Source: Candidatus Micrarchaeota archaeon (GTDB taxonomy: Archaea; Micrarchaeota; Micrarchaeia; Anstonellales; Bilamarchaeaceae). From it: DNA of 57,391 nt. Shown piece by piece: positions 5,101-46,846 of the stretch (the stretch's first letter is position 1; each line of letters begins with the position of its first letter). The notes below the pieces were generated by a model. That model searched no databases. It worked only from the letters and a program-made list of their open reading frames with translations, and had not been told where the DNA came from. The DNA is taken from contig JAZDDV010000021.1 of the NCBI GenBank assembly GCA_043809425.1, positions 1 to 57,391 on the forward strand, given 5' to 3'. The translations under genes and the position numbers were made by a program.

Positions 5101-6264
5101 TTAGTTGGTTTCGCCAAGAGCATTGCCTATGCTACTGCCGATGGAAGAAGCATCCTGTAAATAAACCTGGTAGCTTTTCCATCTGCCATCCTTGAACTGG
5201 TAAAGGTCATCGTCAGTGATAACGAAACTGATGTATTGCGGCGCCCGGTCGCACCCCGGCTGCCCGTCTTTGCACACTGCCAGCTGCTTGCCGATTTCGC
5301 CCATATAAGCGCCGTTCTGCGGCTCAAACAAACCGGCACCATCTAGCTGCTGCAAATCCGTAATAGAGGAGATGTTGTTCTGCGCTAATGCCACGATGCA
5401 ATGGCCAGAGTTCTGGTCAACGGCAAAACAGACGATGTACGGGTTAAGATCGCCTAACCTACCTATGTTGGTCGCTTCGCCATTAACAAACCACTGAATA
5501 GTCTTGCTGCCGTTCTGTTCTTCGAAAATTATATATTGCCCGGCACCAGGCGTCCAGGCCTGTACCTGGGCAGTAGGCTGCAGTGTTTTCATGGTGTTAA
5601 GCACTGCTTTCAGGAAAAGCGAATAGTCTTCGCAGTCGCCCCCATGCCTTTTCAACATCTCATCAATGGAATAAAGCCTGTCCGGGTCTTCGTAGATATA
5701 GCCGTAATGCAGCTTATCCTGCATCAGGTAGTTTATGCAACCAAGCTTGATCGTGCCGTCAACAACGCAGTAGCTCTCTACGCGGTAGGTGAAAAAATCA
5801 ATTGACGAAGGCAGCAGCGAATTGCTTTTGAACCACTGAATTGACTCGTTGATGGAGCGTTCCATGGAAGAAAGCTCTGTCTTAAGCTCGTTGAACTGGA
5901 CCCGGGTCTGATTAAGCAGGTTTCCCGTAAGCTGCAGCAATCTGTTGCTTTCGTTTAACTGCTGGCTGCGTTCAAACAACTGCTGTTTTGTCGTGTTAAG
6001 TTCTCCGCTTGTGTTTGCCAGCTCATTCTGCGTCTGCTGCAACTGCGTGGTGGTTGAAACAAGCGAGCGATTAAGCGAATGTATATCGTCATTGGCAGTA
6101 GTCAGCATCCTTATGGTAGTATTCAATTGCTTGCCCTGCTCCAGCAGCGAAATCTTCAGGCCTTCATTCTCAAGATAAAGAAATAGCACGCCTGCTGCGG
6201 TGATTAGCCAGCTAAAGCCCAATACTAAAATCACGACGTACAGCAGCTTTTTATCCATCGGCAC
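5101..6264 (-). CDS. membrane-anchored coiled-coil protein with possible transglutaminase-like cysteine-protease-fold C-terminal domain
   Basis: N-terminal TM segment (LLYVVILVLGFSWLITAAGVLFLYL), then about 130 aa of heptad-like sequence with repeated LNxT/S sequons. The C-terminal domain has GGDCEDYSLFLKAVL (candidate Cys) and SGHCIVAL (candidate His). Confidence 0.5.
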   Translation of the reverse strand: MPMDKKLLYVVILVLGFSWLITAAGVLFLYLENEGLKISLLEQGKQLNTTIRMLTTANDDIHSLNRSLVSTTTQLQQTQNELANTSGELNTTKQQLFERSQQLNESNRLLQLTGNLLNQTRVQFNELKTELSSMERSINESIQWFKSNSLLPSSIDFFTYRVESYCVVDGTIKLGCINYLMQDKLHYGYIYEDPDRLYSIDEMLKRHGGDCEDYSLFLKAVLNTMKTLQPTAQVQAWTPGAGQYIIFEEQNGSKTIQWFVNGEATNIGRLGDLNPYIVCFAVDQNSGHCIVALAQNNISSITDLQQLDGAGLFEPQNGAYMGEIGKQLAVCKDGQPGCDRAPQYISFVITDDDLYQFKDGRWKSYQVYLQDASSIGSSIGNALGETN

Positions 6265-43571: not shown

Positions 43572-43621
43572 CTATTTATAGTGGGAAACGCCTCAGTAGA
43601 AAGCTTTAAATAGTGGGAAAC
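43572..43621 (+). promoter_or_regulatory. tandem TATA-plus-ATAGTGGGAAAC repeats upstream of the AbrB-family gene (candidate promoter/operator)
   Basis: CTATTTATAGTGGGAAAC (43572-43589) and CTTTAAATAGTGGGAAAC (43604-43621) share the 12-nt core ATAGTGGGAAAC, repeated exactly 32 nt apart. The second copy ends 10 nt before the ATG at 43631. Confidence 0.45.
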
Positions 43622-43630
43622 TTCCAATAG

Positions 43631-43915
43631 ATGTGTAATAAAGGTGTTAATGATGGTGAAAACGGAAAGGGGTTTCCTTCACAGGAAGGGATTTACTTCA
43701 TTTGCCTTGATTCCAAGGCGCGGTTAGTTCTACCATTAGAAATACGCGACGCACTCGACATCAAAACAAATGGAAAAATCCTCATTAGCGTAAGCGTTGC
43801 GAAAGACGGAGAGGTTATTCTACGGCTAGCGAAAGCTCCGGCTGAAATCAAATCACGCGCATGCTCGCGAAATGCGGGCTATGTAGAAAAAAAACGAGGT
43901 GGAAAAAATGAATAA
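43631..43915 (+). CDS. AbrB/MazE/SpoVT-family DNA-binding protein
   Basis: 94 aa. LDSKARLVLPLEIRDALDIKTNGKILISV...GEVILR matches the swapped-hairpin SpoVT-AbrB pattern. Confidence 0.65.
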   Translation: MCNKGVNDGENGKGFPSQEGIYFICLDSKARLVLPLEIRDALDIKTNGKILISVSVAKDGEVILRLAKAPAEIKSRACSRNAGYVEKKRGGKNE

Positions 43916-43923
43916 AATGAAAA
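43891..43923 (+). repeat. direct repeat copy A: AAAACGAGGTGGAAAAAATGAATAAAATGAAA (SD + ATG cassette)
   Basis: 32 of 33 nt are identical to copy B at 44744-44775. It contains the Shine-Dalgarno-like GAGGTGG followed 5 nt later by ATGAATAA(A/G)ATGAAA. Confidence 0.7.
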
Positions 43924-43956
43924 TAGAAGGAAAGGGGGTTGTAGGCGAAAGCCGAG

Positions 43957-44703
43957 GTGTTAGAGGCACGGAGGGACCGGAAAGGGGTTTACTTCACTGC
44001 CGAAGGCAGCAGTAGAAGGCAGCTTAGCTTTGCCAAGTATAAAGAGATAAAAGGTACAATAAAAAAGCTCGAAGGCATCGTGAAAGAGTACTCGATGGAG
44101 TATTCTGAATCCTTGTCTAGAGCACAAGGCGGAGCTAGAAGAAAAATCTACGAAGAAACGAAGAAGCTCTATGTAGAGGAATGCGAAGCTAAGATCGAAC
44201 CAGTTAAGGATAGTGCAAGCAAACTTAGCGTAGCTCTGATGTGTGCCAACCAAGATCCCGGCAATAGGCCATTTGACTATGCCTTTGGCGAAGCGATGGC
44301 TCTTGCAGAAAAAGGAGACTTTCTTAGTGCCGGGGCACTTCTCAGGGATGTTGGCAGTTTTAAGCCTGCCAACGCGGGGGGGACAGAAAGGTGCGAGAAG
44401 CTTGCTGACCGTTCTATGGGCGAGTTAGTTCAACGTGTGTTTGAGGCGCAGGGCGCAAATGCTGCTGAAGAACTGATTCGTCTGCTGACTTGGAACGGTA
44501 CAGGAATAGAACTCAATCGTTTGCCAGGCGCAGACCGTATCATAAATACGGCCATCGATAGTCTTGAACAAGCGGGTGATCTCCGAAGAGCATTCGAAAT
44601 AGGCGCCTACTGGCAAAGGGACTATCTATTCTACATAGGTTACAGATCTCCTGTAGAGACTGATAGGACCGAATGCTTGTTCGCAGCCTGGAGGGGGCTA
44701 TAA
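43957..44703 (+). CDS. hypothetical protein (248 aa) flanked by the SD/ATG direct repeats
   Basis: The long ORF has only a GTG start, located inside a GAGGTG. The SD-preceded ATG at 43908 is in the +1-shifted frame. No recognisable domain. Confidence 0.45.
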   Translation: MLEARRDRKGVYFTAEGSSRRQLSFAKYKEIKGTIKKLEGIVKEYSMEYSESLSRAQGGARRKIYEETKKLYVEECEAKIEPVKDSASKLSVALMCANQDPGNRPFDYAFGEAMALAEKGDFLSAGALLRDVGSFKPANAGGTERCEKLADRSMGELVQRVFEAQGANAAEELIRLLTWNGTGIELNRLPGADRIINTAIDSLEQAGDLRRAFEIGAYWQRDYLFYIGYRSPVETDRTECLFAAWRGL

Positions 44704-44705
44704 CT

Positions 44706-44724
44706 CTTCTTTTTTCTTTTTTAT
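44706..44724 (+). terminator. oligo-T tract after the 248-aa gene
   Basis: CTTCTTTTTTCTTTTTTAT lies directly after the stop at 44703. Confidence 0.3.
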
Positions 44725-44743
44725 GAGATTGCAATGAAAAACA

Positions 44744-44775
44744 AAAACGAGGTGGAAAAAATGAATAAGATGAAA
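44744..44775 (+). repeat. direct repeat copy B: AAAACGAGGTGGAAAAAATGAATAAGATGAAA
   Basis: See copy A. It lies 853 nt downstream of copy A and immediately upstream of the hisG reading frame. Confidence 0.7.
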
Positions 44776-44878
44776 GGAAGGGGTTTACTTCACCGGCAAA
44801 AAAAGGCCGGATGAAGAGGACAGGAAACAATTCAGGAAATGGTTTGAAAAGTTCGGACCTGCGGTCAAAAAACTTGCA

Positions 44879-45517
44879 GTGCCGAATAAAGGTGAGCTGT
44901 TCGAACCAACCGCAGAACTGTTCCTTGATTTAGGAGTTGATTTGCGAGACTTAAAGGCATCGCGAAAGCTTCGGACAACGGTCAGAAACGTCGATGTATT
45001 TCTCATGAACGTCTTTGACATTCCCATGGCCGTGGCAGACCGCTATGTAGGCGCAGGATTAACCGGCGGAGACGTATTTGCTGAGGAATTGGCAAAACGG
45101 CCCACATTCCCCGCTAGAGATATAATCACACAGAAATACAATTTTGGTGAATGCCGCCTTGTTCTTGCAGCATCTCCTGAAACTGTACCCAGGATAACGC
45201 GGGTTATAGCTCCGAATGGGCGGGCCGAGTGGCGAGCGGATAATCCGCTGCGAATAGCAACGAGGTACCCGAAACTTGCCGAGCTCTACATGAATGCATT
45301 TGATCCAAGTTTTGGCTGGGGAGGAGAAATGCCGCCACTCAGGATCAGTTCACTTAACGGCGCAATTGAAACTGCCGTTGCAATGGGTATGGCAGATGCG
45401 ATAATAGATCTTGTGGCGAGCGGCGAAACTCTGAGGGCAAATGGGCTTGTGGAGGTCTATTCATTCAGCAAATATTCTGCAATGATGCTATGGAAGGGCG
45501 AGTTTCAGGCCAGGTGA
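44879..45517 (+). CDS. hisG: ATP phosphoribosyltransferase, short form (N-terminus unresolved)
   Basis: PNKGELFEPTAELFLDLGVDL... and the overall ~210-aa architecture match short-form HisG. The frame is open upstream to 44774 and already encodes the conserved first strand KKLAVPNKG, but it has no in-frame ATG/GTG/TTG before 44879. Confidence 0.7.
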   Translation: MPNKGELFEPTAELFLDLGVDLRDLKASRKLRTTVRNVDVFLMNVFDIPMAVADRYVGAGLTGGDVFAEELAKRPTFPARDIITQKYNFGECRLVLAASPETVPRITRVIAPNGRAEWRADNPLRIATRYPKLAELYMNAFDPSFGWGGEMPPLRISSLNGAIETAVAMGMADAIIDLVASGETLRANGLVEVYSFSKYSAMMLWKGEFQAR

Positions 45518-45607
45518 ATGCGACTAGCGGGCAGAATGGCCGGGCAGGCTGCGTTGCCTGCGGGTGATGCCCTTTTTATTTTTTCTTTTTCATAAGAAAC
45601 TAGCGAG

Positions 45608-46846
45608 ATGATACTTATGAAGCTTACACCAAAAGGAATGCGGGATTTTCTTCCGGAAGAGGCTGCGGTACGTGAGGAAGTGCGGGATCGCCTGGCAACA
45701 GTTTACAAACGCTACGGATTCCTGCCGATGGAAACGCCTGCGCTGGAATATCTTGAAACTCTGCAGGCAAAAGCAGGCGACGAAATTGACAAGCAGATTT
45801 TCGTGCTTAACGACGAGCGATTAGCGTTGCGCTTTGACATGACTGTGCCTTTGGCGCGCATAGCAGCGTCGTTGGAAGCCCCGCGGCCTTTCAAGCGCTA
45901 TGTAATCGGACCTGTGTGGCGAAAAGAAGAGCCGCAAAAAGGCCGCTTCAGAGAATTCTGGCAGGCTGATGCAGATATCATCGGCTGCCCGGGAATGCGC
46001 GCTGAAGCAGAATTGCTAACTATGGCAAAGGAAATTTGCAGCGATTTCGGATTCAAGAAGCCGAAGATGCTGATTAACAACAGGAAAATACTTGACGGCA
46101 TGGCAAAGCGTATCGGATTCGAAGATAAGAAAAACGAAACTCTGCGGTTGCTGGATAAGATAGACCGGGTGGGCCGCAAGCCAGTGGAAGAGGAACTGAT
46201 CAAGCTTCTTGGCCAGAGAGGCGAGGAACTGCTGGCTATTATTGCAGCTGGAAAAACAAATGATGACAAGCTGGAAGCAATAGAAAAAATATCACCAGAA
46301 GGCGCAACAGAACTACGCGAGCTGCTTGCGCTCTGCGACTTTGAACTACAGATTGACCTTACCATGGTCCGCGGCCTTGGCTACTACACCGGCCCGGTTT
46401 ACGAGGTAAAATTAAGCGATGATATGGGCACCATAATGGCAGGCGGCAGATATGACAACCTGCTTTCAACCTATGGCAGAAGCGATTTCGCAACAGGCAT
46501 TTCAATAGGCATAGAACGGCTTATTACGCTGGCGGCGGAAAAGAAAAAAGAAAAGCCAACAGCCACAACAGACGTATTCATTGCGAATGTAAAAGATGAA
46601 TTCTACGAAGCTGCAACACGGCTTGCCAGTAGTTTAAGAGCTGCGAAAATCCGCTGCGAAACAGACCTGAATAAACGTAATTTACGCAAGCAGCTGGATT
46701 ATGCATCCGTAAGGAAAATCCCATTCGTAATAGTAATCGGCCAGCGGGAAGTGGAAACAGGCCTGTACAAAATAAAGAATATGGAAACAGGCGAGGAAAG
46801 CGAAATGGGCGAAGAGCAGCTGATTGCAGATTTGGGGGAGAAATAA
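45608..46846 (+). CDS. hisS: histidine--tRNA ligase
   Basis: Class II motifs are present: PKGMRDFLP, WRKEEPQKGRFREFWQADADIIG, GGRYDNLL and GISIGIERL. A C-terminal anticodon-binding domain is also present (FVIVIGQREVETG). Confidence 0.9.
   Translation: MILMKLTPKGMRDFLPEEAAVREEVRDRLATVYKRYGFLPMETPALEYLETLQAKAGDEIDKQIFVLNDERLALRFDMTVPLARIAASLEAPRPFKRYVIGPVWRKEEPQKGRFREFWQADADIIGCPGMRAEAELLTMAKEICSDFGFKKPKMLINNRKILDGMAKRIGFEDKKNETLRLLDKIDRVGRKPVEEELIKLLGQRGEELLAIIAAGKTNDDKLEAIEKISPEGATELRELLALCDFELQIDLTMVRGLGYYTGPVYEVKLSDDMGTIMAGGRYDNLLSTYGRSDFATGISIGIERLITLAAEKKKEKPTATTDVFIANVKDEFYEAATRLASSLRAAKIRCETDLNKRNLRKQLDYASVRKIPFVIVIGQREVETGLYKIKNMETGEESEMGEEQLIADLGEK

Follow-up and report, generated by a model that had tools for sequence, protein, structure and literature searches.

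The stretch of DNA analysed here, referred to as the window, comprises 57,391 nucleotides (nt) of contig JAZDDV010000021.1 from a Candidatus Micrarchaeota archaeon (assembly GCA_043809425.1). Its subject is an 18-nt motif, GGAARGGGTTTACTTCAC, which lies in short leader open reading frames (ORFs) ahead of the histidine gene hisG and of a gene for a 248 amino acid (aa) protein, and which occurs twice at the beginning of an AbrB-like regulator gene. Judging from the sequences compared, the motif is very likely a programmed +1 ribosomal frameshift site. That the frameshift is tuned by the supply of histidyl-transfer RNA (His-tRNA) we consider rather likely, with less confidence than the shift itself. 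The explanation that probably accounts best for the whole locus is a +1 frameshift site resembling that of prfB, placed before his genes and a regulator and sensing a shortage of histidine. Comparison between genomes confines the +1 change of frame to NUU-CAY within a conserved site anatomy; we infer the slip mechanism, its stimulation by a Shine-Dalgarno (SD)-like box and the sensing of histidine.

Within the window, the 32-nt cassette AAAACGAGGTGGAAAAAATGAATAARATGAAA is present in two copies (43891-43922 and 44744-44775) with 31 of 32 bases identical, 0 being expected by chance; the preliminary description of this locus had likewise given two copies with one mismatch. Exact copies of the 18-nt motif are located at 43980-43997 and 44776-44793. 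The AbrB-like gene carries two further full copies with 2 mismatches each (43665-43682 and 43684-43701), which had formerly been taken for half-copies, so that four copies stand against 0.06 expected by chance. A search of the whole genome for both elements, as proposed earlier, was run and yielded no further copy of cassette or motif elsewhere in its 76 contigs (1.18 Mb; genome G000). A genome-wide recoding signal was consequently dropped, since in this genome the motif is confined to the AbrB/248-aa/hisG locus, whose features are listed below.

43640 to 43658, forward strand: start of the AbrB leader, with SD AAAGGTG and the leader-frame starts ATG 43650, ATG 43653 and GTG 43656
43665 to 43682, forward strand: predicted frameshift site 1 of the AbrB-like gene, GAAAGGGGTTTC, with CTT at 43677-43679 and CAC at 43680-43682; the unshifted leader frame stops at 43725-43727
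43684 to 43701, forward strand: predicted frameshift site 2 of the AbrB-like gene, GGAAGGGATTTA, with CTT at 43696-43698 and CAT at 43699-43701; without the second shift a TGA stop follows at 43708-43710
43700 to 43915, forward strand: AbrB/SpoVT-type body, ICLDSKARLVLPLEIRDAL...KKRGGKNE and stop
43891 to 43922, forward strand: cassette copy 1, with the last AbrB codons (..KKRGGKNE and stop), SD GAGGTGG at 43896-43902 and leader ATG at 43908
43980 to 43997, forward strand: predicted frameshift site of the 248-aa gene, GAAAGGGGTTTA, with CTT at 43992-43994 and CAC at 43995-43997
43996 to 44703, forward strand: +1 ORF of the 248-aa family, 235 codons past the shift
44744 to 44775, forward strand: cassette copy 2, with a fossil AbrB 3' end, SD GAGGTGG at 44749-44755 and the hisG leader ATG at 44761; an extra in-frame ATG lies at 44734
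44776 to 44793, forward strand: predicted frameshift site of hisG, GGAAGGGGTTTA, with CTT at 44788-44790 and CAC at 44791-44793
44792 to 45517, forward strand: short form of hisG in the +1 frame after the shift, TGKKRPDEEDRKQFRKWFEKFGPAVKKLAVPNKGEL...

Each cassette is made up of the 3' end of an AbrB-like gene, a strong SD site and the ATG of a short leader ORF. Copy 1 is not intergenic but is formed by the last AbrB codons overlapping the SD and ATG of the next leader. As the preliminary description had stated, the cassette ATGs open only short ORFs of 35 codons (ATG 43908) and 17 codons (ATG 44761), and both long ORFs, the 248-aa ORF and hisG, are found in the +1 frame relative to them. The leader of the 248-aa gene extends over 29 codons up to CTT and its frame ends with TAG at 44013-44015, while the hisG leader reads MNKMKGRGLL, then His, and ends with TGA at 44812-44814. 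The earlier remark that hisG has no in-frame start for its first strand was also borne out: its frame is open from 44774 and contains no ATG, GTG or TTG before GTG 44879 (35 codons), and a start at this GTG would remove strand 1 (KKLAVPNKG). Via one shift each, the predicted products are a 264-aa protein of the 248-aa family (..PERGLL/TAEGSS..) and a HisG of 251 aa including the leader (MNKMKGRGLL/TGKKRPDEED..); with two shifts, the predicted AbrB-like product comprises 87 aa (MMVKTERGFL/TGRDLL/ICLDS...).

Reading frames in the AbrB-like genes

Of 99 genomes from the same Micrarchaeota family, 39 contain homologues of the AbrB-like protein. The proteins share only 50-75% identity, yet the 5' regions of their genes show conservation at the nucleotide level. 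The layout common to the family consists of the promoter box TTAAATAGTGGGAAA, SD AAAGGTG, ATGGTGAA.., motif 1, one base, motif 2 and strand 1 (..IRLDxKxRLVLP), the SD-ATGGTGAA arrangement being present in nearly all of the 40 related loci. In the window, site 2 follows 19 nt (18+1) after site 1; due to this spacing a ribosome that has made one +1 step would meet motif 2 in the same phase as motif 1. In all of the related loci the AbrB domain is encoded two frames ahead of the one that the SD-ATG sets, and in 24 of the 40 its frame offers no ATG, GTG or TTG before strand 1.

All 40 loci were read according to one rule, a +1 step once the codon just before an in-frame CAY has been read. By this rule an unbroken path from an SD-proximal start to the AbrB domain was obtained for 38 loci (24 with two shifts and 14 with one), and the path through the other two is also unbroken under a looser start criterion. 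In the two-shift loci the codons occupying the ribosomal P site are spaced by 19, 22, 25, 28 or 88 nt, which is always 1 mod 3, and insertions or deletions keep this phase. In the gene of genome G076 one base has been lost upstream and the second shift alone is needed.

The three options of the preliminary description, a duplication-mediated insertion, a 1-nt assembly error in the A/G runs and a conserved +1 recoding signal, had been left unranked there; that the His codon never varies, that the sites are linked to his genes and that AbrB needs a double shift had not been noticed. Comparison with about 100 related sites now strongly supports the recoding signal, and the assembly error is refuted by the recurrence of the arrangement in dozens of independently assembled genomes. 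Transcriptional slippage in G or A runs was rejected as well: many assemblies agree, and in several genomes a +1-frame TAG lies 3' of the G-run, ahead of TTC, and would keep the frame closed even if a G were removed. For the AbrB gene, one single -1 shift was discarded because there is no slippery heptamer and because the motif repeat and the single +1 of hisG would be left unexplained; the non-conservative variation of the leader frame over motif 2 (F/C/S, T/P/A/S) counts against it, too. An alternative genetic code or stop reassignment is unneeded, all paths being stop-free under translation table 11 once shifted.

Read differently, the motif could be a translation start module, with GGAAGGG as the ribosome-binding site and the adjoining triplet (ATG, GTG, ATT, GTT, GTC or ATA) as the start of proteins beginning with M-Y-F-T.. 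This triplet is ATG in P0003, the closest relative of hisG, where gene callers let both AbrB and HisG start at it, and GTT or ATT in the window; ATT and GTG are frequent at this position. We regard this reading as very improbable, since in four AbrB loci from three genera (G043, G048, G097, G085) a TAG directly follows the "start-like" triplet (GGG ATT TAG TTC ATC) in genes which are otherwise intact, and the same is true of one downstream gene. Furthermore, the spacing from this "ribosome-binding site" to the start would be zero, GTT and GTC are not known as starts, and the variety of the triplet is what GAT/GGT plus NUN produce out of frame, conservative variation being found in the leader frame instead. 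The 1 mod 3 phase of paired motifs would likewise be without reason.

With respect to the selection visible at the nucleotide level (invariant third positions of GGA, AGG and GAT/GGT), to the local hairpins and inverted repeats and to the location just 3' of a conserved promoter, one might take the motif mainly as a binding site on DNA or RNA, for example an AbrB operator (GAAGG-N5-CCTTC inverted repeat), and ascribe the frames to decaying or mis-assembled genes. Such genes, however, would not be expected to be full length and conserved in dozens of genomes with an offset that is always +1, with indels that keep the phase and with independent assemblies in agreement; in addition, with a TAG placed between the G-run and TTC, a homopolymer error cannot be the cause. 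We therefore give this explanation very little credence, although a binding role may coexist with recoding rather than replace it.

The assignment of the protein itself is consistent with the AbrB/MazE/SpoVT swapped-hairpin family on account of its LDSKARLVLPLEIRDALGI motif. The matches to the profiles remain below their limits, both for Pfam MazE_antitoxin PF04014 (E 0.0045, 17.3 bits, threshold 24.7) and for NCBIfam AbrB TIGR01439 (E 2e-5, 24 bits, cut-off 28.3). The promoter of the gene is located immediately upstream of the leader:

43572 to 43621, forward strand: AbrB promoter region, with two TATA-like boxes and ATAGTGGGAAAC after each

Throughout the family the box TTAAATAGTGGGAAA is conserved ahead of the AbrB-like gene, several genomes having two copies of it, and in the window genome its TATA-linked form occurs at the AbrB-like promoter only. 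The AbrB-like protein may bind this conserved promoter box (ATAGTGGGAAA) as its operator. In two relatives (L014, 5505-5630; L048, 1-45) the 3' half of a tRNA-like sequence (..GGTTCGAATCC..CGGGGCTA) was noticed just 5' of this promoter; neither ARAGORN nor Rfam called a complete tRNA at these positions, and the half may belong to an intron-containing or split tRNA gene.

The site and the proposed slip

For the analysis of the site itself 92 distinct copies were collected. The pattern used for finding them fixed some positions, so that their invariance is partly circular and the informative free positions are -3, -1 and +5. The motif is conserved at the nucleotide level in many genomes of the family, with the consensus GGAAGGG-(G/A)U-NUN-CUU-CA(C/U). 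The P-site codon is CTT at 86 sites and GTT at 6, and the following A-site codon is CAT (55) or CAC (37), that is, His at every one of the 92. CUU is preceded by a codon of the form NUN (TTA 39, TTG 10, GTC 9, GTA 7, CTG 5, CTC 5, TTT 4, others); in the leader frame this spacer encodes Leu, Val or Phe, whereas in the +1 frame it yields Y, S, C, F, W or a stop. Across the aligned sites, variation inside the motif is thus conservative in the leader frame only. The third positions of GGA, AGG and GAU/GGU are invariant, which indicates that the purine box is selected as RNA and not as peptide. The point at which the frame changes is bounded by stop codons: on the upstream side, the closest stop in the +1 frame is a TAG whose G doubles as the first base of the P codon (4 of 92 sites); on the downstream side, the closest stop in the leader frame immediately follows CAY (3 of 92 sites; CTT CAT TGA). 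Evidently, these flanking stops confine the change to NUU-CAY.

The purine box resembles an SD element. The 3' end of the 16S ribosomal RNA in the window genome reads ..GAUCACCUCCA / ..GCGGAUAGAUCACCUCCA, and GGAAGGGAUU could pair with it at 8 of 10 positions in a duplex that would end 2 nt before CUU. Across the sites the box ends 2-5 nt before the P codon, with a spacer that measures 4-5 nt at sites of the common form and 3-4 nt at variant ones. In divergent sites true SD cores replace the box at the same distance, as in GGTGGA-CGT-CTT-CAC, in GGTGA-ATTA-CTT-CAT ahead of a hisD, and in GGGTGG-TTA-GGC-CAC and GGGGTGG-TCA-GCC-CAC in the AbrB genes of G098, G111, G112, G011 and G101. Each of the variant P codons CTC, GGC and GCC has a pyrimidine at its third position and a C as the next base. 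A tRNA-Leu(GAG), which could re-pair from CUU to UUC via a G-U pair, is encoded in the window genome. SD-like elements precede about 35% of the long ORFs compared to a background of 9%, indicating that the organism uses SD pairing. No known RNA family or leader family of Rfam matched the sites.

Based on this anatomy, the following course of events is proposed. A ribosome starting at the strong SD and ATG of the short leader ORF would, after ten to thirty codons, arrive at GGAAGGG-RU-NUN-CUU-CAY, where pairing of the purine box with the 16S tail would push it forward like the internal SD of E. coli prfB. With plentiful His-tRNA, CAY would be decoded and the ribosome would remain in frame until the leader peptide terminates. 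With charged tRNA-His scarce, CUU would stay in the P site next to an unread CAY, and the peptidyl-tRNA-Leu could re-pair one base forward, from CUU to UUC; AYN would then be read next, in the +1 frame, where the actual protein is encoded. The slip would thereby win, HisG, HisD or HisI would be made and histidine synthesis would be turned on. The slow step would be the arrival of His-tRNA, and the genes controlled in relatives are hisG, hisD and hisI; both suggest that shifting would rise when tRNA-His becomes scarce. In the window, hisG and the 248-aa gene would need one shift each and the AbrB-like regulator two. Since two slips in a row would be required, the AbrB-like protein would appear only under stronger shortage, and its response would follow roughly the square of the shortage signal and hence be steeper. 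That a single "hungry" His codon acts as a direct sensor of charged tRNA-His, one site gating hisG, hisD, hisI and others and two gating AbrB, is in our estimation an evenly balanced proposal.

The main rival for the sensing part is a constitutive +1 change, in which tRNA-His reads CAYN or the shift occurs with CAY in the P site, giving a fixed low yield and set-point control. The stop-codon bounds permit a shift at NUU or at CAY, and at the 3 sites with CTT CAT TGA the stop right after CAY could be the slowly decoded codon in the A site, as a stop is in prfB. The codon after CAY varies elsewhere (R, P, G, L, K, C, W and others), and as it is not conserved a constitutive shift would lack a common slow codon. 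Moreover, re-pairing from CAY to AYN is poor, and such a shift would explain neither the preference for CUU as P codon, which prfB and Ty1 share, nor why the sites are associated with his genes. For these reasons we judge a constitutive shift unlikely.

Genes behind the leaders

In many genomes a third site is found in a short leader directly 3' of the AbrB-like gene. This downstream leader has the form GAGGTG, ATG and 6-29 codons ending in G-R-G/D-L-L, then His. Its frame stops 2-30 codons past the P codon, i.e. 1-29 past His, and the +1 frame opens a long ORF, which in 19 of 32 cases has no start codon at or before the site. According to Pfam, at least 10 genomes encode HisG in such an ORF, in either its long or its short form; at least 6 encode the histidinol dehydrogenase HisD (E values as low as 1e-141), and one encodes HisI (PRA-CH). 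The element heads a whole his operon in G010 and G009 (AbrB - leader/hisD - hisC - hisB - hisG - hisH - hisA - ..), and G088 shows the order AbrB - leader/hisG(short) - leader/hisI - hisS - hisA-like. The window is arranged like G088, except that the 248-aa gene, preceded by a leader of its own, is inserted between AbrB and hisG. The strict motif was detected in 13 of 50 sampled genomes of the family, in 1 of 11 of a sister family and in none of about 240 genomes from other families in the class, its reversed control giving 0 matches; a looser pattern applied to the 99 family genomes gave about 140 matches versus about 20 for the control. The frameshift reading would explain why hisG, hisD and AbrB-like genes are mis-called, truncated or missed in genomes of this family.

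The window HisG was identified by Pfam PF01634 (E 3e-26) and TIGR00070 (119 bits, cut-off 75.8), and no Pfam match to the regulatory domain PF08029 was obtained for it; it is a short-form ATP phosphoribosyltransferase without the C-terminal regulatory domain. Its closest relative, P0003, is 45% identical and originates from Rifle groundwater metagenomes (loci L013-L022), where the AbrB-like gene is directly followed by the same cassette, motif and hisG. The P0003 protein starts with MYFTGSKGPSERDRQRFRK, matching VYFTGKKRPDEEDRKQFRK in the window, and the N-terminal linker is also kept in G088; its conservation as protein in P0003 implies that the stretch past the hisG motif is coding. No more relatives of this hisG were found on genome contigs, and a metagenome scan gave only the same Rifle lineage. 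Short-form HisG normally requires HisZ. At 44792-46846 of the window, the gene after short-form hisG encodes a complete HisRS, anticodon-binding domain included, and HisZ is absent; G088 shows this order as well, and no other his genes were seen in the window.

Of the formerly proposed duplication-mediated insertion one part stood and the other did not. Cassette copy 2 retains codons resembling the AbrB end ..RGGKNE and its stop with no AbrB gene ahead, and in L014 and G088 AbrB is directly followed by the hisG leader; both argue that the junction has been duplicated. Within the window, the hisG leader (MNKMK-GRGLL) is closer to the leader of the adjacent 248-aa gene than to orthologous hisG leaders (MKKLEKGRGLL), and this likeness also points to duplication or conversion of the junction. 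The 248-aa gene itself is not foreign cargo but an old member of the set, since homologues follow AbrB behind the same leader type in G079 (L055) and G101 (L041). Neither Pfam nor NCBIfam gave a match for its protein.

An unannotated family of 354-373 aa is located behind a His-codon leader in at least 9 genomes (loci L070, L073, L074, L090, L093, L099, L100, L030 and L052 of G047, G050, G051, G069, G070, G077, G078, G043 and G059). Its members share the motifs YYGIS(A/T)SR..EP(L/I)DQ(F/L)DV and FVAGR(Y/F)AQLNGR; no match was found in Pfam or among PDB sequences, and the family may represent a histidine-related enzyme or a scavenging function. In several genomes of genus g19 (L070, L093, L100 site at 250; L073, L074, L090, L099) the AbrB-like gene has shrunk to a remnant of 9-54 codons; its leader and frameshift motif(s) have nevertheless been kept and precede the leader that belongs to the 354-aa gene.

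Several observations weigh against a histidine-sensing frameshift or against its being required everywhere. Non-his genes also stand behind the leaders, namely a radical SAM/SPASM gene (G001, of the genus of the window), an M15 peptidase and the 248-aa and 354-aa families. Possible starts of their own are present in some relatives, such as the ATG inside GAT GTA in L014, an ATG in the hisD of G010 and, for the long-form hisG of L027, L031 and L048, a GTG 4 codons past the site; in these loci frameshifting is not strictly required. The his set of the window genome is limited to hisG, hisS and a HisA-like remnant, which makes histidine synthesis not an obvious output there. Neither ARAGORN nor the Rfam tRNA model found a tRNA-His in the assembly, which is incomplete, with 23-26 tRNAs detectable. 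CTT-CAY is not specifically avoided in ordinary genes, as many codon pairs are equally low as its observed/expected ratio of 0.54. To our knowledge, stimulation of elongating ribosomes by SD-anti-SD pairing is established in bacteria and not in archaea. Finally, TnpB-like genes evidently tolerate the nucleotides of the motif in frame within long ORFs.

These TnpB-like genes (L094, L095, L101, L104, L112, L118, L124) carry AGGGATTTCCTTCAC in frame as RRDFLHK, raising the question whether their expression is histidine-responsive as well.

Known systems and further features of the locus

The nearest known system is the site AGGGGG-UAU-CUU-UGA-C of E. coli prfB, at which an autoregulatory +1 frameshift controls release factor 2. 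Both share the short upstream ORF, the main ORF in the +1 frame, the P-site CUU on which the slip would occur and, shortly before it, a purine box that could pair like an SD with the 16S 3' end; in both, the rate at which a slow A-site codon is decoded would report the supply of a factor. In prfB, however, the A site holds the stop codon UGA and the signal is the release factor, whereas the Micrarchaeota sites have the sense codon CAY at 92 of 92 and the proposed signal is the aminoacyl-tRNA. They would thus work like prfB without being prfB-type stop-codon sites. They further differ in belonging to an archaeon, in serving several unrelated genes, in their tandem occurrence within one gene and in the spacer of 4-5 nt (variants 3-4).

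A slow sense codon in the A site, with a P-site tRNA-Leu slipping +1 on CUU as proposed here, is known from yeast Ty1/ABP140 (CUU-AGG-C) and from shifting at hungry codons, where the supply of the A-site aminoacyl-tRNA determines the efficiency. In Ty1 the rare tRNA-Arg is permanently so and the ratio fixed, unlike the proposed response to histidine. Hungry codon frameshifting, associated with Gallant and Lindsley, is reportedly a laboratory phenomenon so far. According to a review of 2016, no natural hungry-codon frameshift giving starvation-specific trans-frame proteins is known (PMC5009743).

As in antizyme, the efficiency of a +1 shift would sense a metabolite within a feedback loop and the product would act on the pathway; antizyme differs by its stop codon, 3' pseudoknot, polyamines and eukaryotic occurrence. 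Like hisL and the T-box, the proposed mechanism lets the level of charged tRNA-His govern his genes, hisL doing so via His codons in a short leader ORF, and short leaders with a His codon before his genes are indeed present in this Micrarchaeota family. However, hisL has seven consecutive His codons and transcription-terminating hairpins and the T-box binds uncharged tRNA, while the Micrarchaeota site has a single His codon and its proposed output is the choice of reading frame. Among the leaders listed no runs of His codons were found, and no terminator/antiterminator pair was seen, one small hairpin being found.

For archaea, fucA1 of Saccharolobus solfataricus offers a cellular gene split over two frames and recoded. 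It differs in the -1 direction, the A-AAA-AAT heptamer, the single gene and the lack of a known regulatory role. It is the only demonstrated archaeal cellular frameshift, +1 events having been suggested only for a virus and a Mg-chelatase (PMC8211752, 2021). A literature search on frameshifting in Micrarchaeota, histidine-starvation frameshifting and hungry codons (2017 on) returned nothing resembling the motif system.

The sites represent a conserved, multi-gene, lineage-wide candidate for +1 frameshifting with a simple anatomy of SD-like box, CUU and one His codon. The proposed sensing at a single His codon, if true, would be the first natural use of hungry-codon frameshifting and an archaeal counterpart of attenuation and T-box control, exerted purely by the choice of reading frame. 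It suggests a route by which amino-acid supply and expression could be coupled without known attenuators or T-boxes, namely a compact amino-acid-responsive switch that includes a natural two-step version.

Two hairpins accompany the sites downstream of AbrB:

43941 to 43957, forward strand: hairpin with GNRA loop in the long leader of the 248-aa gene, GUAGGCGAAAGCCGAGG, GGC-GAAA-GCC
44788 to 44816, forward strand: hairpin CUUCACCGGC-A7G-GCCGGAUGAAG, in which the shift site of hisG pairs with the leader stop codon (-18 kcal/mol, z -5.2)

In the hisG hairpin, CUUCA of the shift site pairs with the UGAAG that holds the leader stop, the short form being CUUCA-CGRA-UGAAG. Related pairings were found in L014 (about 6005-6035), L128, L027, L031 and L048, and the inner stem shows compensatory changes between genomes (CCGGC/GCCGG, UGGUUC/GGGCCG, UGGCC/GGCC). 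The GUAGGCGAAAGCCGAGG hairpin is conserved at the nucleotide level in the 248-aa leaders of the window, G079 (L055) and G101 (L041), three genomes of different genera. Directly past the stop of the 248-aa gene, a T-rich run CTCTTCTTTTTTCTTTTTT was noticed at 44705-44723, possibly an archaeal terminator; in that case the hisG leader would have a transcript of its own.

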